Both the position numbers and the translations under genes were made by a program. The notes beneath the pieces were generated by a model. The model searched no databases. It had not been told where the DNA came from and worked only from the letters and a program-made list of their open reading frames with translations. Below are positions 13,954 to 28,108 of a stretch of 64,000 bases of DNA, piece after piece. The stretch comes from an uncultured Nitrospiraceae bacterium (GTDB taxonomy: Bacteria; Nitrospirota; Thermodesulfovibrionia; Thermodesulfovibrionales; UBA6898), in assembly GCA_963811165.1 (NCBI GenBank), contig CAWEQH010000009.1:1-64000 (forward strand), read 5' to 3'. How positions within the stretch are numbered: position 1 is the stretch's first letter; each line of letters opens with the position of its first letter.

Positions 13954-14037
13954 ACCTGCATATTCTTCATCCGAGACTTTTCATTCCATGACAGCCCTCG
14001 CTTGCAATAATAGACCGGACCTTTTCGAGGTGATCAC

Positions 14038-14664
14038 ATGACTGATGAGAAGAGAAATAGAGAGGAATATGTAATGGTAGTTCCTGCGGCAGATCTGTGG
14101 CGTGCGGGGTACTTTGAAGGCTTATGCTTCGATTTGCCAAAGTATTTAACGATAATAGAAGGGCAGCAGCATATTGAGTTCAAACCGCGGGAGGAGATGG
14201 AGATTAATCCGGATTACAAGCAGATAATTCCGTATGTGATTCTTTCCCATAAGGGGACCATCTTTTCCTATCGTCGCGGCAAATTAATGGGAGAAACGCG
14301 ACTGCTGGGTAATTATTCAATAGGTGTCGGCTGGCATATTTCCGCATCTGACAGGAATTTGTTTGACCACACATACAAGGAAGCTATGCGCCGCGAACTC
14401 AATGAAGAGGTGGAAATAGCATCGCCTTATAAAGAGTATGCTGCTGCACTCATCAATGATGACAGTAACGAAGTGGGGCGCGTCCATTTTGGTATGGTGC
14501 ATATTTTGTGTTTGGATAAGCCCATCGTAAAACCCAGAGAGAAATCGATGAATGAACCGGCCTTCGTTGACCAAACAGCCTTATTAAAAGATATTGATAA
14601 ATATGAAAATTGGTCGCAAATCTGTATTCGAAATATAGAACGGATACTGGATCTTACAAAATAG
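14038..14664 (+). CDS. NUDIX-like phosphoesterase (COG4112 type)
   Basis: E.NPDYKQIIPY, E.RL...SIGVGxHI, RELNEEV, INDDSNEVGRVHFG, ENWSQI. Confidence 0.85.
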   Translation: MTDEKRNREEYVMVVPAADLWRAGYFEGLCFDLPKYLTIIEGQQHIEFKPREEMEINPDYKQIIPYVILSHKGTIFSYRRGKLMGETRLLGNYSIGVGWHISASDRNLFDHTYKEAMRRELNEEVEIASPYKEYAAALINDDSNEVGRVHFGMVHILCLDKPIVKPREKSMNEPAFVDQTALLKDIDKYENWSQICIRNIERILDLTK

Positions 14665-14999
14665 CATAGCGCCGTATGCGATGGTTGTGGCGCCAAGATT
14701 TGGGGAGTCCTTTTTCACCCGATCTTGACAGCTCACATCGAAACGGAGCCGCCGTCAACTCCCTGAACCGGAAAAGTGACCGTCTCATCTCCGACCCTCT
14801 ATCGAAAATGGTTCATGGCTGTCCATTCTCATTGTAGCAGAGTAAGTGGCTATGACCTCCTGAGCTTAGTAAGACCTTAGACCCGTAGGAACCCTTTGTT
14901 CGGAGTCCGTGAAAATGAACTACCCCGCAGCAGAGCTGCGAGGTATCTATTGTTGTCATTCCGGCTGATATGTATTAAACCTGTCAAGTGGGCTAATTT

Positions 15000-15337
15000 C
15001 TCTTTAGGTATTTTTTATTTCTTTCAGTGTTAAAGCCGTGGACTCTGGTCAGGGCACAAGAACTTAGACGACGGTAGATCATTCTGATATACGCGGGTTG
15101 GGTACCGCATGACTTGTCTTCGTCGTGGAGCTGCCTCTGTCTTGTATCGAGGGTCATCCATTTTGCAGGAGCCTCAAGCCGGAAACGAGGATTCTCCATA
15201 CCTGTTCTTCGAACCCTGGCCGAAATACACGGCGCATTATAATAAATCTGTTGTCTGTAGGGGCGGAGAAACACTGCTCCAGTTTCGAAGCCCCGGAAGA
15301 CAATTTCCTTTGTTCTTTCTTTCGTCATCAGTTCCTT
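15000..15337 (-). ncRNA. Putative bridge/seek RNA of the IS110 element (boundaries approximate)
   Basis: Structured non-coding end downstream of the transposase; contains a 10-nt target match (15175-84) and an 8-nt donor-junction match (15083-90). Confidence 0.7.
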
Positions 15338-16468
15338 TTATCCGTTCATCACAACACTGATATTGCCTTTTCCCATAACTTCATGTGCAATGGCCCAGAT
15401 AAAGCCGACCAATTCCCGAGCCACGGCTATACAGCTTTTAACGGGTAGCTTCCCTTTGTTGATCAAATACCAGTACCGGCTGCACAGTCTCTTCTGGGCC
15501 TTCCATGCGATCTCCTGTACAGCTTTGCTGGTCTTCTCAGCCTTTCGCCTCAAGTGAGCAGTTTTGCGCGCTGGCAAGCGATAGCACCAGGAAGCTTCTA
15601 CCATCACTCGTCTTACGTGGCTGTTGCCGGTCTTTGTAATCCCGCCCCTCTTCTGCCGTTCTCCACTTGAATGTTCCGATGGCACCAGTCCCAAGTGTGC
15701 CATTAGCTGCCTGGGAGATTCAAACCTGGTGATATCTCCAAGTTCTGCTACTATCGTAATCGCAGCTACCAGATCCATTCCGCGCAAGGCCATCAATCCT
15801 TCAACTACAGGCTTGAGTATCCAATCTTCCAAGGCCTTTCTTATTTCTTCCTCCATTGATGCTGTCCGCTCCTGTGTATGCTTAACCATATCTATATATT
15901 CCTGCAATACAATCTGCTGGGCTGCCGTTTCAAACCGGAGAGTCTCAAGCCACCTAAAATAGGTCTTCGTCCATTTGCTCTTGCCAGGATAGATTTTCCC
16001 ATGTCTCAATAAAAACCCTCCCAGCCGTTGCCGACTATGCCGTTCCATTCCTTTCATGTCCTCCCGCGCCCGGGTCAGATCCCTCATCGCTTCCTGTTCT
16101 TTATCAGGCACCCAGATTGATGTTAGTTCTCCAGCTCTCAGCAGCCTTGCAAGACTCACTGCGTCCCTCCGGTCCGTCTTCACCCTGTCTCCAGCTTTCT
16201 TCGGTATCAGTGACGGAGCTATCACCACACAGTCATACCCAGCCTTCGTCAGTTGCCGATAAATTTCATATCCGCATGGCCCGGCCTCGTAACAGAACAA
16301 TACCTGATCTCCAACTTTACTTAATTTCTTCGCCAGCTTCAGGCAGGCATAGGGTGTATTCTCTATCGTGCCGTAATAACCTGCCTCTCCTCTGTCGCCC
16401 TTCGCTATGCCTACCGAAATCTCTGCCTTGTGTACATCCAGCCCTGCAAATTTGCTATAATTCTTCAT
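15338..16468 (-). CDS. IS110-family DEDD transposase/recombinase
   Basis: GLDVHK, YEAGP, KTDRRDA (RuvC-like DEDD) and GLVPSEHSSG...GITKTGN (catalytic Ser domain). Confidence 0.97.
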   Translation of the reverse strand: MKNYSKFAGLDVHKAEISVGIAKGDRGEAGYYGTIENTPYACLKLAKKLSKVGDQVLFCYEAGPCGYEIYRQLTKAGYDCVVIAPSLIPKKAGDRVKTDRRDAVSLARLLRAGELTSIWVPDKEQEAMRDLTRAREDMKGMERHSRQRLGGFLLRHGKIYPGKSKWTKTYFRWLETLRFETAAQQIVLQEYIDMVKHTQERTASMEEEIRKALEDWILKPVVEGLMALRGMDLVAAITIVAELGDITRFESPRQLMAHLGLVPSEHSSGERQKRGGITKTGNSHVRRVMVEASWCYRLPARKTAHLRRKAEKTSKAVQEIAWKAQKRLCSRYWYLINKGKLPVKSCIAVARELVGFIWAIAHEVMGKGNISVVMNG

Positions 16469-17023
16469 GACCTGTCCTCCTTAATGTGGCTCTGAGCCTT
16501 TGGTTTTTCTACCTTTAGCTTAACCCACGTCCTTAAGGATGGACAGGTTTTATACATTATGTCTTGTCCGACAACCCCTCCCAGCCTCCCCTTGTCAGGG
16601 GAGGGAAATTATTCTCGTCCCCCTGATAAGGGGGATAGAGGGGGTTGAAGGATTCCCGGCGCGCTTTGCTTGCGGGAATGACAAACAATAACCCCGATGC
16701 AGAGCATCGAGGAATTCTTTTGATTAAAAATATTTCATCTCCGGCAGAACAGTCCTTCGTTAGTAACAGTGAGTTCTGTAGGATAGAAGCTGACTTTACA
16801 ATTAGATTTAGTCTGACAGATTTTCTTTTTTTTTCTGATATAAGGAATCTATAGAATTGCCGTCACTGGAAAGGAGGTGCTGTTTTCTCCGGTGCTTGGC
16901 GATCTCAATCGCAACGGGAGGTCGCCCAAAGAATACCCTGGCTCCTCGAAGGACAGAAACTCAAGCTTTCGAGGGTGAATTTTAGTGAAGCGGTCTGGTT
17001 CTTATCTGTAGGAGGTATTTGAA

Positions 17024-18301
17024 ATGAAAGATATACTTTTCAAGGGCAGTATGATTGCCGGAACCATCGGTCGTTACATTATGGCCAAAGCAGTCGCATT
17101 TATGTTCGTGGCCATTTATCTGGCGCTTGCTGTCGGCGTGGCGACCGCCACTTCCCTTACAGTGGGGAAGATGTATGTAGTAAATGCTACCTTTAACACG
17201 GTCATCGAGGCGAACCTGGACGGCACGGGAGGAGTGAGCCTCGGCAACCTCAACGGTCTGACTATCGGCGGCGTATCCGATATAGCGTTGGACAAACTCC
17301 ACGGCAAGATGTATGTAACGCCGTATTTCAACTTGGTCCAGGCGAATCTGAACGGCACGGGAGCAGTAGACTTCGGCGATCTCAACGGCCTTTATAAGGG
17401 AGGAAACGGGATAGCGCTGGACATAGCTGACGGCAAGATGTATATAGTCACCAATAATACCGTGGTCCAGGCGAATCTGGACGGCACGGGAGCAGTGAGC
17501 CTCGGCAACCTCAACGGCACGCTTAATGATCCGGCCAAGATAGCGTTGGACCTCGCTGGCGGGAAGATGTATGTAGTAAATGCCGGCAATAACACAGTGA
17601 GTCAGTCGAATCTGGACGGTACGGGAGGAGTAAACCTCGGCACCCTCAACGACACACTCGACGGGCCGATTGGGATAGCCTTGGACACCGCTCACGGGAA
17701 GATGTATGTAACCAATAGTTTCAATAACACAGTGAGTCAGGCAAATCTGGACGGCACGGGAGGGGTAAACCTCGGCACCCTCAACGACACGCTCGGCTGG
17801 CCGTTCGCGATAGCCCTGGACCCGCTTGGCGGTAAGATGTATGTAGTGAATTCCACTGCTGACACGGTGAGCCAGGCAAATCTGGATGGCACAGGAGGAG
17901 TAAGTCTTGGCAACCTCAACGGCACGCTCAACGGCGCAAACGGGCCATCTGCTATAGCACTTAATTTTGAGACTCTGCCACCTTCGGTTTTGAATAATCT
18001 CTCTTTGTACGTGCAGATACTGTTCGGGGTCGGGAATGACGGCGGCGGCATAGGCATCCTGCCGGGCGGGGGGATAATACACATTCCGCCCAGCGGCCCT
18101 CCGGACCCGATCTTCCTGACGCTTCGTAATAACATGCCGCAGGTGCTCCGGGCGGTGGAGCTTTACGAAAACGGCCTGGCTGTTCCCGGCACTGCAACGA
18201 GCAGCACGATGCAAAGAGAAAAAAGAGAGGCTTTGCTTATGGCGATAGATGCGCTATTGAAGATGCAGGTGTCATTGGGAAAAGCGCTTATCGGCAGATA
18301 A
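17024..18301 (+). CDS. Exported YWTD/LDL-receptor-class-B-like beta-propeller repeat protein
   Basis: AGGAGG RBS, hydrophobic N-terminus, six repeats of GKMYV.N..NTV.QANLDGTGGVSLGNLNG.L..P..IALD. Confidence 0.85.
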   Translation: MKDILFKGSMIAGTIGRYIMAKAVAFMFVAIYLALAVGVATATSLTVGKMYVVNATFNTVIEANLDGTGGVSLGNLNGLTIGGVSDIALDKLHGKMYVTPYFNLVQANLNGTGAVDFGDLNGLYKGGNGIALDIADGKMYIVTNNTVVQANLDGTGAVSLGNLNGTLNDPAKIALDLAGGKMYVVNAGNNTVSQSNLDGTGGVNLGTLNDTLDGPIGIALDTAHGKMYVTNSFNNTVSQANLDGTGGVNLGTLNDTLGWPFAIALDPLGGKMYVVNSTADTVSQANLDGTGGVSLGNLNGTLNGANGPSAIALNFETLPPSVLNNLSLYVQILFGVGNDGGGIGILPGGGIIHIPPSGPPDPIFLTLRNNMPQVLRAVELYENGLAVPGTATSSTMQREKREALLMAIDALLKMQVSLGKALIGR

Positions 18302-18344
18302 GGGGGCAAGACCGATGCATGCTCAATGCACGAACATCTGAAAT

Positions 18345-18379
18345 TAAAAAGGGCGGGACTGTGTGTCTCGCCCTTTTGG
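18345..18379 (+). terminator. Terminator hairpin after the propeller gene
   Basis: aaaagggcggga...tctcgccctttt. Confidence 0.6.
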
Positions 18380-18804
18380 TAGGCACAAAAAATACAAGAG
18401 GAGCTTTGCGCGCGGCAAGAGATGCCATGAAGAACATGTAGCAGACGTTGCAGAAAATTCATTAGTGCCTACTTTGCGGAGGTTTTGAAACATGGGACGC
18501 GGCAAAAATGGCCGCGTCCCTTTGTCGTCGGCGATCGTGGGCTTAATCTCACATCTTCACTTGTGCTGAATGGACAATGGTGTCTTTTCCCAACTCGTGT
18601 TTTGATTCCCTTCCCTCGTTTGCAATAACAGAACAAGCTGCCTTTTTCTGACAGAAGGTCGGAACAAATAAAAGTGAGAAGCGCGGAAGAGAGATGAAAT
18701 TGACTGTTACTTCATGAATCAGATATGCATACATATGATTGCAATATGCTATGCAGATGGCTATAATACAAACAGAGATTAAAACAAGATTCGGAGGTGC
18801 TGAA

Positions 18805-19023
18805 ATGGCCACAGCCGTAAGAATATCAGAAAAATTAGTCAATGAGGCGAAGAAATTTAGCCGCGTCGACCATCGCTCTATAACGGGTCAAATAGAGCAC
18901 TGGGCGCAAATCGGCAAATGCGCTGAAGAGAATCCTGATTTAACGTATAGTCTTATCAAAGAAATGCTTATGGGCCTGGAAGAACTGGAACAAGGCCAGA
19001 GATCAGAATACAAGTTCGGCTGA
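18805..19023 (+). CDS. ParD-like type II antitoxin
   Basis: MATAVRISEKLVNEAK....HRSITGQIEHWAQIGKCAEENPDL; GGAGG RBS. Confidence 0.9.
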   Translation: MATAVRISEKLVNEAKKFSRVDHRSITGQIEHWAQIGKCAEENPDLTYSLIKEMLMGLEELEQGQRSEYKFG

Positions 19024-19030
19024 TTACCGG

Positions 19031-19312
19031 ATGAAGATCTATCAATCGAGGACATTTGAAAACAAGATAAAAAAGTTTTCGCTGCAAGAAAAGGAAATAT
19101 TGGATGAGGAAATCAAAAAGATAGCGAAGAACCCTCTGGCCGGAGAAGAAAAAAAAGGTGACCTGAAATGTGTTTACGTGTACAAGTTCAAAATCAAGTC
19201 AATTCAGTATCTCCTTTCGTATAGAATGATTAAAGCCGGCCTGGAGTTAATCATGATCGGCCCGCACGAAAATTATTATCGTGACCTCAAAGGCTATTTA
19301 AAACGGAGATGA
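19031..19312 (+). CDS. RelE/ParE-family type II toxin
   Basis: NPLAGEEKKGDL..VYVYKFK...YLLSY...IGPHENYYRDLK; directly downstream of the antitoxin. Confidence 0.9.
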   Translation: MKIYQSRTFENKIKKFSLQEKEILDEEIKKIAKNPLAGEEKKGDLKCVYVYKFKIKSIQYLLSYRMIKAGLELIMIGPHENYYRDLKGYLKRR

Positions 19313-19366
19313 CAAAAAGGGTAACACATAAATCGAGGCGACCGGAAAAAGCCAGTGGCGGGGCAG

Positions 19367-19463
19367 GCCTGGGATTGTGGCATATGGTCCAGCAGGGAAA
19401 AAGGCTCCCGAAGGAGCCCGTTTTTTTTATTTAGGATACAAGCGCTATAGGTCGGTAAGTATC
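19367..19463. repeat. Flank A copy 2
   Basis: Aligns by eye to 12740-12844. Confidence 0.75.
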
Positions 19464-20003
19464 TTTTCGCGTAATTTCAAATGTTCTTCTTCTGTTATAG
19501 AACCGTTTTCCTTTAAATCATCACATTCTTTTAAACGTTCTTCAACCGTTTTTTCGCGGATGGCCGTTGGCGGCGGTGAAGGCGCAGGTTCGAGTGATTC
19601 AACGAGGAGGGATAGGTTTTAGTTCAACCAGCTTGATTACTACAGGATTTGGTTTTAAGTCGTACATGGCACCGGAACCGGCATCAACAGCAGCACCTAT
19701 TAATCCGCCAAACAACACATTGCCTGCCATTCCTGCGCTACCACCACCTGAAATCTGTGGGGTTATATTCACCTCAACCGGTTCGTAGCCTTCACGTTCT
19801 ATTTTTACAACACATGCCTCTTTTCTTTTCATTTTTAATGAACATGGCGTTTTGCATATTAAGCCGTTGGATAATCTCGCTTCTGCACTTGGCGGGTCTG
19901 TTTCAATAACGAGCGTGTCGTTAGAGCCGCGTGTTATGGTAGCACAAGCCGAAGTTAAAGCCATCAAGCAGATGATAAGAAGACCCCTTAGAATTCTTTG
20001 CAT
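19445..20003 (-). CDS. PEGA-domain lipoprotein with a C-terminal SHOCT domain (frameshift near 19605)
   Basis: Lipobox TSAC-ATITRG, PEGA-like region, Gly-rich helix GNVLFGGLIGAAVDAGSGA. The shifted frame continues EPAPSPPP...VEERLKECDDLKENGSITEEEHLKLREKILTDL*. Confidence 0.75.
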
Positions 20004-20172
20004 AAATCCCCCCTTAAACTGTATTTAGGCTATTTGTTATCCCCTCAGAACTACCCAAGTTTATACATTAAATAATTTTAATGTCAATGAAGTACCAGGG
20101 TGAGTATGTTTTTGAGGCTGCAAGTTGAAGTCGTTATTCCGCCCTCAGAACTTTGGAGATTAAGGTCAAACA

Positions 20173-20275
20173 GACCGGAATTAAACCGTTTCCTCTTGAC
20201 ACTGATCGGGCGGAGGGGTATAAAATAGCGTTAGGTGACGGGGAGAATGGGTAATAAAAGGGGAGGAAAGTTCAT
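20173..20275 (+). promoter_or_regulatory. Flank B copy 2, containing a sigma70 promoter and RBS
   Basis: TTGACA (20196) - 17 bp - TATAAA (20219), then GGGAGG and ATG. Confidence 0.75.
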
Positions 20276-20316
20276 GATGTTCGCTACAGCACCTTCTTTC
20301 AATCTCCGCAGACAAG

Positions 20317-21015
20317 TCAGCTCAATAAGGCTTTTATTGATTCGTTCAGCAGGGGATCAAGGATATATAGGGGAACAAATACTTCATACCTACCCTCCGC
20401 GTACGAACCTACTTGATATGGGTCAAAAAACACACGGATGCCGCCCCTCGTAAAGACAAAATGTTTGTAATTTCTATAATACGGCGCTGCGCCCGATAGA
20501 ATCCATGCATCTTCCTTGTTCATTAGCTCTTTGGCTCGTTCATTAGTGTCATGAAAACGAAGTGGCTGCTGCCTATGTAAATCCGCCACGCAATACTGGG
20601 ACAGAAGCTTGAGGTAATTGCTTGATGCCTTGAATACGGCCTTCAGTTCCAGGCGTAATGACGGATGAAGCTGAAAGTTTAAAGTGCGGGTGTGCATGTT
20701 GGGATGCATTCCCATCGCATAATAGCTCATAAACTCAAACTCTATTGATAACAATTTAGGAGTGTATAGTGAAATGTTGTGCGAGATCGACAATTCATCC
20801 CACGCCGCTACAGTCACCTTTTTCATCTCATCCTTCTCCACTGAGCGTGCAATCGCCTCCGCACGGAACCGATCTAACGTATCCGTAATAAAGGTAGTGA
20901 TGCAGAGATTTGTCGCCGCATCTGCTGTTGAATCGTCAGTGGCAACTTGCGGATAGTCGGCTTCAAAGGAATACGAGTATTGGTCGCTGTACTCTTTCAT
21001 TTGTAGGTATTTCAA
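20317..21015 (-). CDS. RsiV/DUF3298(+DUF4163)-domain protein; probably the C-terminal part of a fusion with the upstream HNH
   Basis: ADYPQV, LLSIEF...Y..GMHPN..TRTLNF, F.FT..GIRVFFDPYQVGSYAEG.YEVFVP; no signal peptide or TM segment seen. Confidence 0.8.
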   Translation of the reverse strand: MKYLQMKEYSDQYSYSFEADYPQVATDDSTADAATNLCITTFITDTLDRFRAEAIARSVEKDEMKKVTVAAWDELSISHNISLYTPKLLSIEFEFMSYYAMGMHPNMHTRTLNFQLHPSLRLELKAVFKASSNYLKLLSQYCVADLHRQQPLRFHDTNERAKELMNKEDAWILSGAAPYYRNYKHFVFTRGGIRVFFDPYQVGSYAEGRYEVFVPLYILDPLLNESIKALLS

Positions 21016-21344
21016 AGCGCGCGTTGCTCCAGTGTCGGTGACCGCTGGTTGTCCGGCCTATGCTCCTTGTCTCGGTTCACAGAGACTCTTCTTACCCAAT
21101 CTGCCTTATACAAAACTATTTGCGCGGCGTTCAACTTTCGATCGAATCCACCGCAACTGTGTATCGCGGTGGCATTCCATACAGAGAACAGCCAAATTGT
21201 CAGCTCCATTATTGGTTGGATTGTCATCTATGTGATGAATTTGTACTGGCCTACGGCGTTCACGACAGACACAGCAAGTTGGTGGACTCAAAGAGCAACT
21301 GTGCAGCGCGGTCTGGCGGAATTTCACTCTGCTTTTTGGGTCAT
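21012..21344 (-). CDS. HNH endonuclease domain (frameshifted)
   Basis: Stitched frames read EIPPDRAAQLLFES..TCCVCRERRRPVQIHHIDDNPTNNGADNLAVLCMECHRDTQ..GGFDRKLNAAQIVLYKADW. Confidence 0.8.
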
Positions 21345-21614
21345 CTTGCAGCGTTGCTCAATCCACCTAGAGTTGTATAGTTTCTGCTCATCTTCGCAAA
21401 TTCTATCATAGCCCCTCAGGATTTTGACAGATTTCGTATTCTTCAAACTGGATATCATGCCTTTTCAAGTGAAAGCAGCATCCAGCAAGGTAACTTTATT
21501 AAAAAGAAATAAAGTCTTGTCTTTAGCATGTGTAACGTATTATCATTAATCACTTTTTACAATATGGGGATAGAGAACAAGTGGCCCTTGCGAGGTCCGA
21601 CGTTGGAAACGAAG

Positions 21615-22365
21615 ATGAAAAGAGTGGGTCTCAAGATGCAAGACCCGACTACATTTGTAGGGTCAGTGTATATTAATACATCTGTCGCTCACAGGAGCTT
21701 GGCATCGCGCCTATATCAATATGTAGCGTGTATATATGAAGATGATTCTATTTCTCGTGCTCAAAATGCTATTGTGGCTTCTCATATCGGCACACCTATA
21801 CATTTTGTACAGTTAGTTCTTGCAATGGAGGACAAGCGTTTCTGGATTCATCCGGGATTCGATCCGATTGGAATTGGTAGGGCAATGCTAATGAAAACGC
21901 TCAGGAAAGGGCGCCGGCAGGGGCAAGCACGATTCCCGAGCAGATTGTGAAACTTAGACGCAAGCAAACTGGACCTACAGGCGTTGTTCGACGCGCTTTA
22001 AGAGCTGTAGCTGCTATTTCGCTTACTTTTCACGAACCGAAAGTGGATATCTTAGTGGAATATTTACAACGTGTTTATTTGGGTGGCTCTTCTTATGGCG
22101 TTGCATCCGCCAGTCAGTCGTACTTTCATTGCTCCCATTCCGAATTAACACCATCTCAGGCTTTTTTTATTTCTTAGCGATCGCCTTGCCGAATAAGTGG
22201 AGATCCGCTCGGCTTGTCAATGCGCTTCAGAGGCAGCGTATTCGCACACTTATAGGCGATGACCTCAAAAACCTATCACTAATTTACGGCAAGTTCTTTG
22301 GCCCCAATGCAGAATCGGAGGTATATAGAATTTGCTTTGCAACAACAAAGACCAATGAGAGCTGA
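21615..22365 (+). CDS. Stand-alone GT51 peptidoglycan transglycosylase-like protein (two frameshifts; start uncertain)
   Basis: Motif 1 AMEDKRFWIHPGFDPIGIGRA. After the G-run at 21920-23: QGASTIPEQIVK, KVDILVEYLQRVYLG..SYGVASASQSYF...ELTPSQA. Confidence 0.8.
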
Positions 22366-22899
22366 AGAAGCACACGAAGCGGGCCGCCAAGGGGTGATAC
22401 GCGCCAGACATTTGCTGTGGCAAGTGTTGGGTGAGGCAATTGACCTTCCATTCAACGCTTATGATCATAGAGCAAAGCTTACATTTGACGAGATGAACGG
22501 CGCGATGAAACGCCAATTTTGTTTTGACCTTGGCGGGATATTGCGCAGTAGGAAACCCACGCGTGTCTAGGCCTGGAGGTAGTTGAAGTCTTTGTGGAGG
22601 TAAAGGCGTATCAGACAGGCACTGACCTGCTGTCGCAATATAGAGAATTCTTGCGACATGCTGCCATAGTGTCTTTTAACGATCGCCATAGGGACAGTTG
22701 GTTCATATTTCTGGCAAGCACCCCCTTTGGGAGTAGCGTTGGAGTGAAGCTGTGTGATGGGTCGTTTATGGAAGAAGCCAGAGAAACTTGGGATACTAAT
22801 TTGAAGGCGGTCTCAAAAGATCTTCATTCGAGGTCTTGTTTAATAATAGCTACGCAATCGTTTGAAAGATTATTGACTAAATGGGGCCGCGATGTCTGA
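22355..22899 (+). CDS. Putative PD-(D/E)XK restriction-endonuclease-fold protein (frameshift near 22565)
   Basis: N-terminal helix AHEAGRQG, then FDLGG, then in the shifted frame EVFVEVKAY (D...ExK); start overlaps the upstream stop. Confidence 0.6.
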
Positions 22900-23944
22900 T
22901 TTTACACTACTTGTAAATCGAGCAAATACATGGGCGGAGTACTACGGTGCCTTCAAGGATGCTTACCGTTACTTACTTGAAGACAGCTTGGCCTTAGGTA
23001 ATGCGGGTTTTGCACAACAGCTTCATCACACTGCAATCCCGGACGTTACGGGAACGATGGTCGGATCTCTCAATTGGTCTGTTTACTCACAACCTTCTCC
23101 CCAAACTTTGCAAGCTTTTTTGCCAGTTTTTCGAGATTTACTGAAGGCCGAGCCTCACCGCATTCGCAGTAGCCGCTATCTTTTTTTTGTCACTGAGGGG
23201 TCTCCTTTATCGAGGGTTGCCATCAAGTCGGCTTTGGGAGAGTTGGGAAACATAGTTGATTTCTGGTGCGGATCTCTCGATACAACAATATCATTATCCA
23301 AACAATATGCGCTTCCGCTTAGTTTAGACGCTCTTCTCGGCGATGGCACATTGCTCGATGGGTACCTATCGAGTCACTCACCATACTTGGAAGACAGTCC
23401 GGTGGATTTCCTTGCTTCTTTTCGAAACTACTTTAGAGCATCTCCCTGTCGAGACTTCTATTGCACCGCGACCTATCCGAAGACCCCTGATCGATTCATC
23501 TTTTATTCTAGCCTCATTCAAACTGAATATTGATCCCGAACGGGTCGTGGCCATGATGGGCACTGACATAGGCATATCTCGTATATGGCATCAAATAGAG
23601 CTAAAGCTTCCAATTGGCAAGCTGAAACTGTTGCCTATTGTGAACGCATCTTATTGTTAAGTCCTCCTAAGGTCATCGAATATACTGTGGAACCTGGCGA
23701 TATTCTTTCCAGGATTGTCCGAAAACATTACGAGATGTCATTTTCACTGCTATGGCCCCTTATCCGAATACTGAATCCAGACATTTCTGATCCGAATCGT
23801 ATCTTCGCTGGGCAACAAATTCGGCTCCCTGACTTATCGCTGGAAAAAAATACACTTCGGAGTCGGAAGGATGAAGCGACCCATGGAATTCAGGGATATG
23901 TCTTAATTGCGGTGAAAAGGAAAAGCTTCAGTTGCGTTATCTAG
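22892..23944 (+). CDS. Unknown N-terminal domain plus C-terminal LysM domain (probably one gene with two frameshifts)
   Basis: YTVEPGDILSRIVRKHY......IRILNPDISDPNRIFAGQQIRLP is a LysM motif; frames 22892-23533, 23343-23660 and 23585-23944 overlap in sequence. Confidence 0.7.
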
Positions 23945-24046
23945 TGGCACTGTTACTTGCGCAATCTTCATTGTATCTAGAATTAAGAATGGTCGTCATA
24001 TGCAGAAAGAGATGTCGTTTATTATTGGACGAACTCCACTCGACAA

Positions 24047-24098
24047 CAGATGAAACGTTTTGAATGGGCCTATAAGGGCGAACTCGAACAGTCCTATC
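24047..24098 (+). pseudogene. Duplicate of the first ~50 bp of tag
   Basis: cagatgaaacgttttgaatgggcctataagggcgaactcgaacagtcctatc closely matches 25908-25959. Confidence 0.8.
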
Positions 24099-24286
24099 TG
24101 AAGGACGCCGATGGGTACAATGTCTGTGCCGAAAACTGTTATGATGTACTGATTTCAATCTACAATATCTTAGTGGTGAGCAGTGGCAGCGATGCAGGCA
24201 AGGAAAGCACTCTATGAAAGGAAGGTCGGCAGGAAGATGACGAAGTTTCGGCGGAACAAGGTATCGAACCTCGCCCTCAACTTATC

Positions 24287-24937
24287 ATGAGACAGGCACT
24301 CAACGATCAGGAGCGTATGCAGCTTGACCGGCGAACGGCCGAGGCAGAGAAGCGCACCGGCGCGCAGATCGTTCTTGCGGTCATCGAACGCTGCGACACA
24401 TACCCCGAACTGCCGTGGAAAGCCTTCGCTCTGGCAGCGGCTGTAGCAGGTTTGCTTGTTTCCGCGGCAAATTTGTTCCGGCCCGGCTGGGCTTCAGGCA
24501 CGGCGGTGCTGTTCTCCGTTGTCGCAACCCTTGCGGCAGGGGCCGCTGCCGCATTGTTCTGTGTCTTTTTTCCTAAGTTCGGCCGGCTCTTTCTTGACGC
24601 CCACCGCGCAGAGGCGGAGGTGAGGCAATATGCCGATTCACTTTTCCTTTCGCGGGGACTCTTCGCCACCCGCGGACGTACAGGAGTTTTGGTGCTCGTC
24701 GGCCTGTTTGAGCGGCAGGTCGTCATTATTCCCGACACCGGGCTTCGCGAACGCCTCAAACCGGACGCCCTGCAAGTGATAGTTTCACAGATGACGACTG
24801 CCCTTTCATCCGGCAGGGTCGCCGCTGCGCTGGAAGATGGGCTCACAGCTATCGAACAGGCCCTGTCCGCCTCCGCACCTTCAGCCTCTCAGGAAAACGA
24901 ACTTCCCGATGAGGTCGTCGAGGAGAAAGGCACATGA
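24287..24937 (+). CDS. TPM-domain membrane protein
   Basis: AEKRTGAQIV, two TM helices, TRGRTGVLVLV.LFERQVVIIPDTG. Confidence 0.85.
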   Translation: MRQALNDQERMQLDRRTAEAEKRTGAQIVLAVIERCDTYPELPWKAFALAAAVAGLLVSAANLFRPGWASGTAVLFSVVATLAAGAAAALFCVFFPKFGRLFLDAHRAEAEVRQYADSLFLSRGLFATRGRTGVLVLVGLFERQVVIIPDTGLRERLKPDALQVIVSQMTTALSSGRVAAALEDGLTAIEQALSASAPSASQENELPDEVVEEKGT

Positions 24938-25885
24938 AGCAGGCCTTGAGGTTTGCCGTGCTGGCGAGTATTTTTCGCGGTGGCGATGTTTGCTCAAGCG
25001 GCGGACGTCCCTTACCTGTCTGGCCGCATCACCGACAACGCGGAAATTCTTTCTCAGGCAAAGCGCCAGTCGCTGACCGAACTCCTCAAGGCCCATGAAG
25101 ACAAAACCGGCAATCAGATCGCCGTCCTCACGGTGACCACGCTGGGCGGCCAGAGCATCGAGGAATACGCTACCGCAGTCTTCGATGCGTGGAAGCTCGG
25201 TCAAAAAGGCAAGGACAACGGCGTACTTATTATCGTGGCTCCCACCGAGCGGCGCATGCGCATTGAAGTGGGCTACGGTCTCGAAGCCACACTCACCGAT
25301 CTCCTGGCCGGCAGGATCGTAAGCAACATTATGACGCCCAGATTCAAGACAGGGGATTATGACGGAGGGGTTGAAGCCGGCGTAATAGCCGTTATCACAG
25401 CCCTGGAGGGAGGCGAGGTGCCCGCGGTGGCGAAAACAGGCCCCGACACACAAAAGTCATCCGGCTTTCATATAGATGCACCGGACATGCCGCTCACTCA
25501 GCGCATCCTTTTCGGTGCCTTCACCTTCGGCATTATCGGACTTTTTACCGTGATGGGCGTCGTTACCCCTGGGGTCGGTTGGTTCCTTTACTTCTTCCTC
25601 ATCCCTTTTTGGGCGATGTTCCCGATCGTAGTCGTCGGGACAAGAGGCGCCTTTTACCTGCTCATCACTTATGTCATCGTATATCCCATCGCCAAGCTGC
25701 TGCTCAGAAACACCGACTGGTATAAGAAAGCCGCTACGGATCTTCGCACCAAAGGCCATGCCTCCATAGGCGCCTTCTCGATCTCGTCCGGCGGGAGTTC
25801 GTGGAGTTCGGGGTCTTCCGGCGGGGGAGGTTTTTCAGGAGGCGGCGGGTCTTCAGGGGGAGGGGGCGCCTCCGGCGGCTGGTAG
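24934..25885 (+). CDS. TPM/YgcG (DUF477) protein with a Gly/Ser tail (probable frameshift in the signal peptide)
   Basis: GRITDNAEILS, WKLGQKGKDNGVL, RIEVGYGLE, GGFSGGGGSSGGGGASGGW. Confidence 0.9.
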
Positions 25886-25910
25886 TCTTCGATAGTTCAT
25901 TAAACAGCAG

Positions 25911-26468
25911 ATGAAACGTTGTGAATGGGCAAATAAGGGCGAACTTGAACGGTCCTATCACGATAATGAATGGGGCGTGGAGATCCACGACGACAGGACG
26001 CTGTTTGAATTTCTTATTCTGGAGGGCGCGCAGGCTGGACTTAGCTGGTCTACTGTCCTTCGGAAGCGGGAAGGCTACAGGAAAGCTTTTGATAATTTCG
26101 ATGCGCGGAAAATCTCCAGATACTCTGAGAGCAAAGTAACCCGGTTGCTCACCAATCCTGAAATCATAAGAAACAGACTCAAAATTAATGCGGCGATCAC
26201 TAACGCCAAAGCGTTTCTTAAGGTGCAGAAGGAATTCGGGAGTTTTGATAAATACATTTGGCAATTCGTTGATGGTCGGCCTGTCCAGAACAGATGGAAA
26301 AGAATGACGGATATCCCTTCGAGCACCCCTCAATCTGATGCCATGAGCAAGGATTTGATCAGGAGAGGATTCAAATTCGTCGGAACGACCATCTGTTATG
26401 CGTTCATGCAGGCAGTAGGCATGGTAAACGATCATGTCGTAGACTGCTTCAGGTACAGGGAACTGTGA
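25911..26468 (+). CDS. tag: DNA-3-methyladenine glycosylase I
   Basis: RCEW, YHDNEWG, LEGAQAGLSW, IIRNRLKI, GFKFVG.TICYAFMQAVGMVNDH..C. Confidence 0.97.
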   Translation: MKRCEWANKGELERSYHDNEWGVEIHDDRTLFEFLILEGAQAGLSWSTVLRKREGYRKAFDNFDARKISRYSESKVTRLLTNPEIIRNRLKINAAITNAKAFLKVQKEFGSFDKYIWQFVDGRPVQNRWKRMTDIPSSTPQSDAMSKDLIRRGFKFVGTTICYAFMQAVGMVNDHVVDCFRYREL

Positions 26469-26866
26469 TTATGAACAGCGAGATACCTCGGAGATTTCCG
26501 ATTCTCTTCGATAAGTGGTATGGGATTTTGTCGTGCGCATTATTTTTGGCTCCTTCGAAATGCTATATCGAAGTAGACGGTGATCAGGTCTCTGTCCAAA
26601 TGGGTTGGGCATTTCGGACCCGCTTCCCGCGATCGGCAGTGGCCGCTGTCGCGGAAACGGGTAAGCACCCGATCAGTCGTGGGGTGCATGGATTTGGGGG
26701 CCGGTGGTTGGTGAACGGATCGGGACAGGGAATCCTGGCGATTGACCTCACGCCGACTCACCGTGGATACGTCATGGGCTTTCCGGTTCGTTTGCGGCAA
26801 CTTATGGTGAGCGTAGCCGACCCCGCGGCGCTGGCAGCGATGCTCGGGAACGAAAAGAAAGCATAA
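26465..26866 (+). CDS. Hypothetical protein
   Basis: Coupled to tag; VQMGWAFR, GVHG..GRWLVNGS. Confidence 0.7.
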   Translation: MIMNSEIPRRFPILFDKWYGILSCALFLAPSKCYIEVDGDQVSVQMGWAFRTRFPRSAVAAVAETGKHPISRGVHGFGGRWLVNGSGQGILAIDLTPTHRGYVMGFPVRLRQLMVSVADPAALAAMLGNEKKA

Positions 26867-26877
26867 CGATCCAACTG

Positions 26878-26906
26878 CCGGCGCGCTTACTTTGCGGGAA
26901 TGACAA
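26878..26906. repeat. Half copy of the REP-like repeat also seen at 16656-16684
   Basis: ccggcgcgctt..ttgcgggaatgacaa. Confidence 0.65.
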
Positions 26907-26984
26907 CGTCGCCCTGGCCATCCCGTTACGCTTAGTTCCGGCGCGGGAACGCCGATATGCTCTCCCTGGCTCCGACCCTATTTC

Positions 26985-27179
26985 TCACACAAGTATCTTC
27001 TTTACACGTCCCACTTCTCCGCTTTGAAGACGTACCTTAATGCCGTGCGGATGATTGGGAGATTTAGTGAGGATGTCTTTTACAATCCCTTCCGTGAGCT
27101 TCCCGGTCCGCTGGTCCTGTTTGAGCACGATAGATACGCGCAGGCCTGGTTTTATATCGATACGCTTAGTTCCATCCAT
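26985..27179 (-). CDS. YwbE/DUF2196 family protein
   Basis: IVLKQDQRTGKLTEGIVKDILTKSPNHPHGIKVRL..G.VGRV. Confidence 0.9.
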   Translation of the reverse strand: MDGTKRIDIKPGLRVSIVLKQDQRTGKLTEGIVKDILTKSPNHPHGIKVRLQSGEVGRVKKILV

Positions 27180-27232
27180 ATGTAGGACATTATAAAACAT
27201 CTTTAATAGACTGTGGTGAGACTGTGGGAGAT

Positions 27233-27260
27233 TTGACAATCGTTCAAAACCCGATAGAAT
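27233..27260 (+). promoter_or_regulatory. Sigma70-like promoter of the oxidase operon
   Basis: TTGACA - 16 bp - TAGAAT. Confidence 0.55.
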
Positions 27261-27310
27261 TTATGTAATAGGATTTTGCCTTTTTTTATTTGGGCGTGAC
27301 GAGGTAAGGA

Positions 27311-28108
27311 TTGGAAAAAACAATATCTGTCGTTTTCCTGCTGACACTTTTTCTGATGGGAAATGTCCGGGCCGTTCAGGCCGCTTACCCGGAAGCCGCC
27401 CTGGATGAAAAGCCAGGCAGCGTCATACCGCTCGATCTGACCTTTCAGAGCGAAGAGGGGAAGAATGTTTTGCTCAGGGACCTGATCGACAGACCGACAG
27501 TCCTTATGCTTGTTTACTATGACTGTTCGCATCTCTGCCCGCAGATGCTGGCAGGTCTTTCGAAATCGCTCGGCGACCTTCAGCTCGTGGCCGGGAAGGA
27601 CTATAGAGTGATCACGCTAAGCTTCGACGATACGGACAAACCTGCGGAGGCGCTTGCGCAGAAACGAAATTACATAAGGGCGATAAACCGTCCCTTCCCT
27701 CAAGACGCCTGGCACTTTCTCACCGGCGACAAAGATACTATAAGAAAGCTGTCTGATGCCGTGGGGATCAGGTTTAAAAAGGCAGGACACGGCTTTATCC
27801 ATCCCGAAGTCCTGATCTTCATTTCTGCCGGGGGAGTAATTACGAAGTACATGCATCTCCCGAGATTCAATTATGGGGTGGCTGACCCCATGGTCTTTTC
27901 CGCGTTGGGTCTTAAGGATGCTTTCATCGAGGCGTCTATGGGAAAGGTGTCGACCGGCGGCAGGGTAACGCCGATGTACTGCTTTCTTCATGAGCCGCCA
28001 AATCAGGAAAAATTCTTCAATATGTTGAAAGTATCGGGGACCCTTACGGTCCTGACCCTTTTTCTGCTCTTTGTGTATCTGAAGGGGCAAAAAAGGACCG
28101 AAAGATGA
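27311..28108 (+). CDS. SCO1/SenC copper chaperone
   Basis: YYDCSHLCP (CxxxC), WHFLTG, conserved His in FIHP; first gene of the cox operon. Confidence 0.9.
   Translation: MEKTISVVFLLTLFLMGNVRAVQAAYPEAALDEKPGSVIPLDLTFQSEEGKNVLLRDLIDRPTVLMLVYYDCSHLCPQMLAGLSKSLGDLQLVAGKDYRVITLSFDDTDKPAEALAQKRNYIRAINRPFPQDAWHFLTGDKDTIRKLSDAVGIRFKKAGHGFIHPEVLIFISAGGVITKYMHLPRFNYGVADPMVFSALGLKDAFIEASMGKVSTGGRVTPMYCFLHEPPNQEKFFNMLKVSGTLTVLTLFLLFVYLKGQKRTER

Follow-up and report, generated by a model that had tools for sequence, protein, structure and literature searches.

Comparison of a 64,000-nucleotide (nt) stretch of DNA from an uncultured Nitrospiraceae bacterium (contig CAWEQH010000009.1; hereafter, the window) with intact relatives revealed a cassette of three overlapping genes on the forward strand at positions 21615-23944. 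These genes encode a protein resembling the GT51 family of glycosyltransferases (gene 1), a D...ExK nuclease-like protein (gene 2), and a protein that ends in a LysM domain (gene 3). By sequence comparison, the cassette is a rare, conserved, and co-inherited unit, apparently spread horizontally, that recurs in other phyla and in unrelated bacteria, while the copy in the window is probably a pseudogenized relic in a strain-specific variable region. For the intact relatives, we give roughly even chances to a function as a nuclease-based anti-phage or conflict system that is gated by the binding of a cell-wall-type glycan.

Layout and decay of the cassette in the window

An open reading frame (ORF) list and three-frame translation of the plus strand at 21.5-24.0 kb revealed eight short ORFs spread over three frames. 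A sequence-only reading of this DNA had stitched such fragments into three overlapping genes, and three-frame translation combined with tblastn upheld that assembly. As rulers for the frames we used the closest intact relatives, P0040 for gene 1, P0017 for gene 2, and P0002 for gene 3, which are all reported to come from a 22,249-bp contig. Each correctly framed piece of the window was 84-95% identical to its ruler. Gene 1 (21615-22365), a pseudogene for a GT51 (Transgly)-like protein that lacks a transmembrane (TM) anchor, matched P0040 at 84-95% in three frames and Pfam family PF00912 in two pieces. Gene 2 (22355-22899), a pseudogene for a PD-(D/E)XK-fold nuclease with the motifs FCFDLGG and VEVK, was delineated by the match to P0017 (88-90% in two frames), a family alignment, and a structural model. 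Gene 3 (22892-23944), a pseudogene for a degenerate nuclease-like domain followed by a helical linker and a LysM domain, was delineated by the match to P0002, 12 intact homologs, and a model. Gene 1 ends at a stop codon at 22365 and overlaps the ATG of gene 2 (22355) by 11 nt, and gene 2 ends at 22899, overlapping the ATG of gene 3 (22892) by 8 nt. A search of 21300-24200 against Rfam returned nothing above chance.

All three genes of the window copy are broken, by five frameshifts and one TAG codon in total. In gene 1, one base is lost from a G run (a -1 shift near 21923), a TAG at 22178-22180 replaces the Glu codon of relatives, and another -1 shift follows directly after this TAG, near 22183. 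Gene 2 carries a -1 shift near 22567. Gene 3 gains one base (or loses two) near 23431 and loses one near 23580, which puts ~150 nt (~23431-23580), or about 50 codons, out of frame, and when this stretch is read through in a single frame the identity of gene 3 to P0002 is 78%. The nonsense codon, like the second nuclease-like domain that we describe in gene 3 below, adds to the sequence-only reading.

Five of the six lesions are insertions or deletions of 1-2 nt, one of them in a G run, and residue conservation of the pieces is high (84-95%); both observations favor the alternative that the organism carries an intact cassette and that the frameshifts arose in the metagenome bin through local errors of assembly or consensus. 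The rest of the 3.66-Mb genome argues against such errors, as it is otherwise clean: 85.6% of it lies in ORFs of at least 100 amino acids (aa), 451 ORFs reach at least 500 aa, and 111 reach at least 800 aa. Among 1566 segments of this genome with the size of the cassette region (2.33 kb), just 2.2% have a longest ORF as short as the one found there. Because the genome is otherwise clean, the genes neighboring the cassette are intact, and one lesion is a substitution that creates a stop codon (TAG), we read the window copy as a pseudogene and regard assembly error as improbable. The earlier treatment of this cassette as a candidate working system did not hold for the window copy, which is inactivated in all three genes. 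For its own genome the finding is a modest one, the copy being probably dead. Programmed frameshifting and an alternative genetic code were rejected, because the intact relatives do without them and the remainder of the genome is read in the normal way. No second copy of gene 2 was found in this genome.

Synteny and spread of the intact relatives

For gene 3, 12 intact homologs of nearly full length (316-333 aa) were collected; gene 2 (~181 aa) has 23 homologs of 165-187 aa, and gene 1 has 10 close homologs together with 8 more distant ones that also lack an anchor. When the gene 3 alignment was used to scan contigs from genomes and metagenomes, 12 loci were recovered, about seven of them distinct (L009/L012, L010/L011, and L013/L018 are near-duplicates), and tblastn revealed the order gene 1-gene 2-gene 3 with overlaps at 9 of the 12 fetched loci. 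Two others are too short for synteny to be judged (L014, 1.8 kb; L019, 1.3 kb), and in L016, a four-gene form, an additional 245-aa ORF separates the Transgly gene from gene 2 and the gene 3 that follows. The three-gene synteny that the sequence-only reading had proposed to look for is thus conserved, other phyla included; host labels of the gene 3 loci and homologs include Nitrospiraceae, Syntrophaceae, and Terriglobales. Pairwise identities of the three proteins co-vary (r 0.83-0.95 over 8 loci, which give 28 non-independent pairs), which fits inheritance as one unit. Furthermore, the L009 and L010 operons are 88-92% identical and their flanks are different, which fits mobility.

The cassette is also sparse. 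Of 401 genomes sampled from the window's phylum, 3 contained gene 2, and in a sample of equal size (401) from the phylum of the L009 genome it was found once. A profile search of 1.84 billion cluster representatives recovered ~20 full-length gene 3 clusters and, after them, LysM-only proteins; among the 150 matches listed for the gene 3 alignment, none had the N-terminal domain fused to another C terminus. At the DNA level, 40 related genomes contained no relatives of the cassette except for a short promoter element (see below).

A two-gene form of the cassette, found in a distant genome (locus L024 of G362), encodes a 253-aa Transgly protein followed by a 245-aa protein. Residues 6-178 of the latter match the gene 2 profile (hhalign probability 99.3, E 3.6e-20) and keep the motifs FSFDL...FVESK, and its tail is LysM-like, with a score of 20.1 bits that falls just under the cut-off of 20.9. 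This fusion indicates that nuclease and LysM belong together. As judged from these alignments, the same three modules stay together across deep divergence, and nuclease and LysM can share one chain.

Two of these loci hold further genes of note. The extra 245-aa ORF of L016 (4733-5470 of that locus) matches PHROG 32008 (E 7.6e-9) and has no Pfam match. Both L016 (374-1852) and the G362 locus (15548-17050) carry a gene for a ~495-aa PD-(D/E)XK nuclease near the cassette, with PDDEXK_1 and RNase_H_2 matches in L016 and Cas4-type PADLOC matches in G362.

The GT51-like protein and a predicted nuclease pair

The two window pieces of gene 1 matched PF00912 (Transgly) at 33.8 bits (21528-21950) and 46.3 bits (21947-22177), above the cut-off of 27, while intact relatives scored 109-123 bits. 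A gene 1 profile matched the GT51 domain of Aquifex aeolicus penicillin-binding protein (PBP) 1A at E 4e-34. By these profile matches, gene 1 is a true GT51 homolog. GT51 enzymes have two catalytic glutamates, one in motif 1 (EDxxF) and one in motif 3 (RKxxE). In the window, gene 1 retains EDKRF..HPGFD, GASTIPEQ, and K.DIL.EYL.RVYLG, and in the family alignment all 22 sequences share an invariant motif 1 (EDxRF.H.G.D, with the catalytic Glu) and motif 2 (G.STI..Q). The position of the motif 3 Glu, as aligned to RKIKE of 2oqo/3nb6, is mostly Arg, or Gln or Lys in a wider anchor-less clade; the Glu is kept only in L016, and the window reads VVRRALRA. These alignments agree with the original description of motifs 1, 2, and 4 as present and motif 3 as degenerate. 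Since the motif 3 Glu is lost in all but L016, polymerase activity of gene 1 is doubtful. Compared with the GT51 domains of class A PBPs and with MtgA, gene 1 thus has clear homology and recognizable motifs 1, 2, 4, and 5; it differs in having neither a TM anchor nor a transpeptidase domain, in carrying Arg at the site of the second catalytic Glu (the wider clade carries Gln or Lys), and in being embedded in a nuclease operon. The wider clade of short, anchor-less GT51-like proteins (P0049-P0055, 205-260 aa), whose labels include Thermotogae and Thermosipho, has also lost this Glu.

GT51 and LysM are textbook extracytoplasmic modules, and genes 1 and 3 could accordingly be ordinary exported wall enzymes, namely a monofunctional transglycosylase and a LysM wall-binding protein. 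The classic wall-module character of both Pfam domains speaks for this, as does one source that labels relatives as "membrane peptidoglycan carboxypeptidase". In a crude Kyte-Doolittle scan, however, no TM or signal-like segment was detected in 7 gene 1 and 6 gene 3 homologs, in line with what had been claimed from the window for both proteins. The maximum 19-residue mean was 1.35-1.84 in the 7 gene 1 sequences, and in 6 of them this maximum fell in the conserved helix before EDKRF rather than at the N terminus. Gene 1 also scored below every NCBIfam cut-off for PBPs and MtgA by a wide margin (mono_pep_trsgly, 58.4 bits against a cut-off of 182.65; PBP_1a_fam, 105.7 against 508.75), its second catalytic Glu is gone, and it is translationally coupled to two nuclease-fold partners. 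Finally, three intact, canonical GT51 genes are present elsewhere in the genome, which marks gene 1 as an accessory copy. Export was thus already disfavored, and we consider it very improbable.

Pfam returned no match for the window pieces of gene 2 or for the N-terminal part of gene 3. The FD...EVK noted earlier in gene 2 corresponds to residues D58, E82, V, and K84 (P0017 numbering), which are invariant in 23 of 23 sequences and appear in the window as FCFDLGG and VEVK. A model of gene 2 (predicted local distance difference test score (pLDDT) 87.6) compared by VIA-align gave NucS as the best match (Z 9.2, root-mean-square deviation (rmsd) 2.8, 108 residues aligned), followed by XisH (8.9), AF1548 (8.9), and further down PaqCI (8.0) and the small subunit of R.BspD6I (7.8); nearly all 50 VIA rows are PD-(D/E)XK enzymes. 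Foldseek listed mostly nuclease domains of Avs3, Cap4, MspJI, and HamA, with a best E of only 3e-3, and ESM Atlas returned Mrr_cat-bearing clusters at 0.87-0.91, which we take as leads only. Absence of a restriction-endonuclease fold from gene 2 would have undone the initial proposal; according to the model and both fold searches the fold is present, together with the full PD-(D/E)XK triad, and gene 2 is a predicted nuclease.

The end of gene 3 is a LysM domain. ORF 23585-23944 matched PF01476 at 31.2 bits (cut-off 20.9) over residues 33-82, which places the domain at 23681-23830, and in a model of the ~330-aa protein (pLDDT 86.2) residues 262-317 matched LysM structures, which have a beta-alpha-alpha-beta fold, at Z 5.7-6.7 and rmsd 1.6-3.0. 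Gene 3 had been described as a LysM protein; this stood for its end and not for the whole, as the first ~150 residues are a FokI-like degenerate nuclease domain in the model. Residues 1-153 (22892-23350) best matched the R.BspD6I small subunit (2p14_A; Z 8.5, 139 residues aligned, rmsd 3.7) and the FokI cleavage domain (Z 8.1), with many other nucleases after these in the list; the assignment to a FokI/R.BspD6I-like restriction-endonuclease fold also draws on invariant columns and on the predicted interface described below. Within this domain P50-D51 is invariant, and the next strand reads NWAVYSQPS, with S-Q-P in place of (D/E)XK when catalytic positions are placed by secondary structure rather than by superposition. 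The N-terminal domain is thus probably a pseudo-nuclease. Other searches added little: a BFVD fold search of gene 3 gave only LysM-sized matches, ESM Atlas gave no usable match for its residues 1-250, and PHROGs gave weak LysM-type matches only. Comparison of genes 2 and 3 by hhalign found no sequence similarity (probability 0.1), and an origin of gene 3 as a recent duplicate of gene 2 is not supported.

A complex of all three proteins was predicted from the sequences of the 22-kb contig set, with one alignment per chain, and the result suggested that gene 2 pairs with gene 3. Gene 2, the chain that was scored, reached 0.63 (runs of 0.59, 0.63, and 0.65), while the best of three controls reached 0.00. 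Among solved complexes, 116 of 157 attain this mark, compared with 2 of 215 mismatched pairs; these counts are rough here because the calibration used single pairs and other alignments. The runs shared at least 85% of contacts, partner pLDDT was at least 72, and all confident contacts joined gene 3 residues 12-18, 42-49 (QLHHTAIP), and 67-86 to gene 2 residues 8-41 (which include PFNAYDH..K). These contact residues are the most conserved motifs of both proteins. Gene 2 is thus predicted to bind the nuclease-like domain of gene 3.

This arrangement is reminiscent of type IIS cleavage modules (FokI, and the large and small subunits of R.BspD6I), which are the best matches of the gene 3 N-terminal domain and, in the case of the R.BspD6I small subunit and PaqCI, also match gene 2; the predicted pairing likewise resembles R.BspD6I/FokI-type dimers. 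The cassette differs from FokI and R.BspD6I in having no detectable sequence similarity, no DNA-recognition domain, and no methyltransferase, and in that one partner appears to lack (D/E)XK.

Genomic context and possible function in defense

Guanine-plus-cytosine (GC) content is 0.41-0.48 across 18.5-24 kb of the window and 0.53-0.59 beyond. A ParD/ParE pair (18739-19312) and, 5 kb from the cassette, an IS110 transposase (15338-16468) are nearby, which agrees with the earlier placement of the cassette in an AT-richer island beside a toxin-antitoxin (TA) pair and an insertion sequence (IS). When seven genomes of the same genus were compared with 14-30 kb of the window, colinear matches started only near 27.4 kb, where conserved synteny resumes at SCO1/cytochrome oxidase genes; of the sequence at ~14000-27400, these congeners contain only the ParDE pair and a small gene (near 27.0 kb), both at other locations. 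The cassette therefore sits in a strain-specific variable stretch of at least 13 kb with lower GC. Defense-like genes also surround other copies. L008 has DUF932 and RadC genes upstream and a TrwB/mad8-like ATPase, an ASCH protein, QatC (7.6e-79), and QatA (9e-58) downstream; two Gp49/HTH pairs lie in L010, a DUF4238 gene in L013, and an IS in L009; and in G362 an AbiV-type HEPN gene is directly downstream and an RHS toxin upstream.

A conserved promoter-like element precedes gene 1 at 21511-21572 on the plus strand. It consists of TTGTCT-18 nt-TATCAT at 21517-21546 (9 of 12 consensus matches in a consensus scan) with an AT-rich core, followed by a GGGGA motif that resembles a ribosome-binding site (RBS), and the core is invariant in seven aligned copies. 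Of 151 genomes of the order, 14 contain the element, each with 1-3 copies at 79-94% identity, and the window's own genome has two copies; other sites are G000:C8:~290974-291030 (L006/L039) and loci L002-L005, L007, and L028-L047. Of the 25 other occurrences, 13 are followed by ORFs (the next one or two were considered) that match PADLOC models at E up to 1e-5. Some of these belong to restriction-modification (RM) systems: a type II restriction endonuclease and methyltransferase in the window's own genome, type I HsdR (two), a type III methyltransferase, and a Mrr-type type IV enzyme. Others are DUF262/Orf5, PDC-S05 (several), PDC-S22, PDC-S23-like, Old/AriA-like, and a mad6/PD-T4-6 kinase. Of the remaining 12 occurrences, several precede ORFs that look like TA pairs by their opening residues, as judged by eye, and two are at contig ends with no ORF. 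The cassette thus appears to be among those that share a defense-type promoter, a link that is guilt by association and not a statistic. The element may mark co-regulated defense cassettes or a cassette boundary, and it offers a possible handle for finding more defense cassettes in this bacterial order.

We propose that intact relatives of the cassette use the gene 2-gene 3 heterodimer as a DNA-cutting effector. The LysM domain and the cytoplasmic GT51-like protein would recognize or make a ligand containing N-acetylglucosamine (GlcNAc) and/or N-acetylmuramic acid (MurNAc) that reports infection, for which unflipped lipid II, uridine diphosphate (UDP)-MurNAc-peptide, or imported muropeptides are candidates, and activation would stop the infected cell or cut the invader. 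The initial interpretation thus survives in part: the co-inherited unit, the nuclease fold, and the mobile, defense-like context were supported, while a LysM-only gene 3 and a working local copy were not. The trigger suggested then, peptidoglycan precursors or fragments or a phage lysis protein, is purely conjectural.

The proposed system resembles Cap4 of the cyclic-oligonucleotide-based antiphage signaling system (CBASS), Can1, Can2, and Card1 of type III CRISPR (clustered regularly interspaced short palindromic repeats) systems, and NucC in that a nuclease-fold effector is combined with a small-ligand module and encoded beside an enzyme. It differs in that the sensor is LysM and not SAVED or CARF, and in that the enzyme is a GT51 homolog and not a nucleotide cyclase. 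A precedent, itself predictive, for cytoplasmic immunity proteins that act on peptidoglycan precursors comes from the Lipocone (Min-Wnt) immune effectors, which are predicted to act on unflipped lipid II (eLife 2025, PMC12419801). Those effectors have an unrelated fold and another operon, and the passages of that paper on LysM, transglycosylases, and lipid II do not describe the present cassette (PMC12419801). Neither the L008 nor the L009 trio had a match in PADLOC-DB 2.0.0 (2023) with E up to 1, and the G362 pair had none with E up to 1e-5. PADLOC 2023, NCBIfam 2026, PHROGs, and Pfam hold no name for the cassette beyond the two domains, and among open-access papers and bioRxiv we found no description of a GT51-nuclease-LysM operon, consistent with the earlier impression that it is not a named system. 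In kind, the cassette is a multigene nuclease cassette of defense islands; its GT51 and LysM parts are unprecedented. These parts appear to lack export signals and are genetically tied to a restriction-enzyme-fold pair, with LysM fused to the nuclease in one lineage. If the proposed defense function is correct, a simple three-gene (or two-gene) unit would bring a new sensing or signaling logic to immunity, the reading of cell-wall precursors or a glycan.

Several observations weigh against this proposal. Z scores of 8-9 are typical best scores for models that have no clear match, according to the tool's own note, and the fold assignments rest on the consistency of the match lists and on the motifs because the values are middling. 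Because PD-(D/E)XK dimers are common in the PDB, the pairing score may owe something to the predictor's prior exposure to this fold. For the GT51-like chain no confident contact was predicted, a result that is uninformative in either direction. Glycan binding by this LysM is not assured, since LysM folds are also present in phage baseplates and in cytoplasmic proteins that have other ligands, such as Kbp, which gene 3 matches at Z 6.2. The absence of export signals was judged from the Kyte-Doolittle scan only, and the N terminus of gene 1 in L016 has a mildly hydrophobic stretch. The defense-like neighborhoods are observations at about 9 distinct loci and not enrichment over a background, the neighbors of L015 and L017 look like housekeeping genes, many of the defense matches linked to the promoter-like element are related cassettes (PDC-S05 and DUF262 recur), and several matches to the element are only 26-30 nt long. 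The gene 3 alignment found no copy in IMG/VR contigs (10 pattern matches, none confirmed), and tblastn of gene 2 against phage and plasmid records found no match.

The same modules could also be arranged as a signaling pathway, in which the GT51-like enzyme makes a short GlcNAc/MurNAc glycan from precursors at the cytoplasmic face upon infection and the LysM on the nuclease heterodimer reads this messenger to trigger DNA cleavage, much as effectors of CBASS, Thoeris, and type III CRISPR read nucleotide signals. The minimal two-gene form, an enzyme plus an effector fused to a ligand-binding domain, is consistent with such a pathway. All 22 sequences have the motif 1 Glu and motif 2 unchanged, which argues for a kept active or binding site, and the fold relatives of genes 2 and 3 include the ligand-activated Cap4, Can1, Can2, Card1, and NucC. 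The loss of the motif 3 Glu outside L016 makes polymerase activity doubtful, however, no infection sensor is evident, and we know of no glycan messenger in any defense system. We consider this pathway unlikely; if real, it would be the first signal in bacterial immunity to consist of carbohydrate rather than nucleotides, and it would give the peptidoglycan polymerase fold its first role in the cytoplasm.

Two further explanations each seem rather unlikely to us, slightly more so than a glycan messenger. One is type IV-like restriction, in which glycosylated bases in phage DNA would be recognized by LysM together with the lysozyme-like GT51 fold, and the DNA would be cut by the gene 2-gene 3 pair. 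The two restriction-endonuclease-fold modules, whose best matches are cleavage domains of FokI, R.BspD6I, MspJI, AspBHI, and LlaBIII, would suit this role, as would the lack of a methyltransferase and a promoter element common to RM and Mrr genes. Yet no DNA-binding or base-flipping domain was recognized, nothing in the data points to modified DNA, and to our knowledge neither GT51 nor LysM binds DNA-linked sugars. The other, to which we assign a similarly small likelihood, is an addiction module in which the gene 2 nuclease is a toxin restrained by the gene 3 pseudo-nuclease and the cassette persists by post-segregational killing rather than by defense. A tight predicted gene 2-gene 3 interface, overlapping and translationally coupled genes, and a sporadic distribution beside TA pairs and IS elements are consistent with addiction, and decay of all three genes in the window would be expected once a selfish module loses its grip. 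Addiction leaves the conserved GT51-like gene and the LysM domain unexplained, and G362 has nuclease and LysM in one protein and no separate gene 3. Nuclease-based defense gated by a glycan remains the reading we favor for the intact relatives.

The window contains other features around the cassette. Upstream are genes for a PEGA lipoprotein and a DUF3298 protein and, directly next to the cassette, a 73-aa ORF with an HNH motif (21106-21327, minus strand) that matches the HNH part of ZorE models (E 2e-8) and may be a remnant of another nuclease gene. Downstream, a 56-nt direct repeat (24043-24098 and 25904-25959, 89% identical) duplicates the RBS region and first codons of tag, the 3-methyladenine glycosylase gene at 25911-26468. 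The two repeat copies flank two GC-rich genes for TPM-domain proteins (24287-25885), which suggests that the 5' end of tag has undergone an insertion or rearrangement. Beside the IS110 gene, a ~125-nt sequence at ~16555-16685 recurs at 78-96% identity at about a dozen sites in the same genome (C1, C4, C5, C6, C8, and C10) and in relatives. It looks like a miniature inverted-repeat transposable element or a repetitive extragenic palindromic sequence, and a related 29-nt piece lies at 26878-26906. Finally, a 425-aa ORF at 17024-18301 contains five to six tandem repeats of 129-135 nt (43-45 aa) with weak matches to SGL and LDL-receptor class B beta-propellers.

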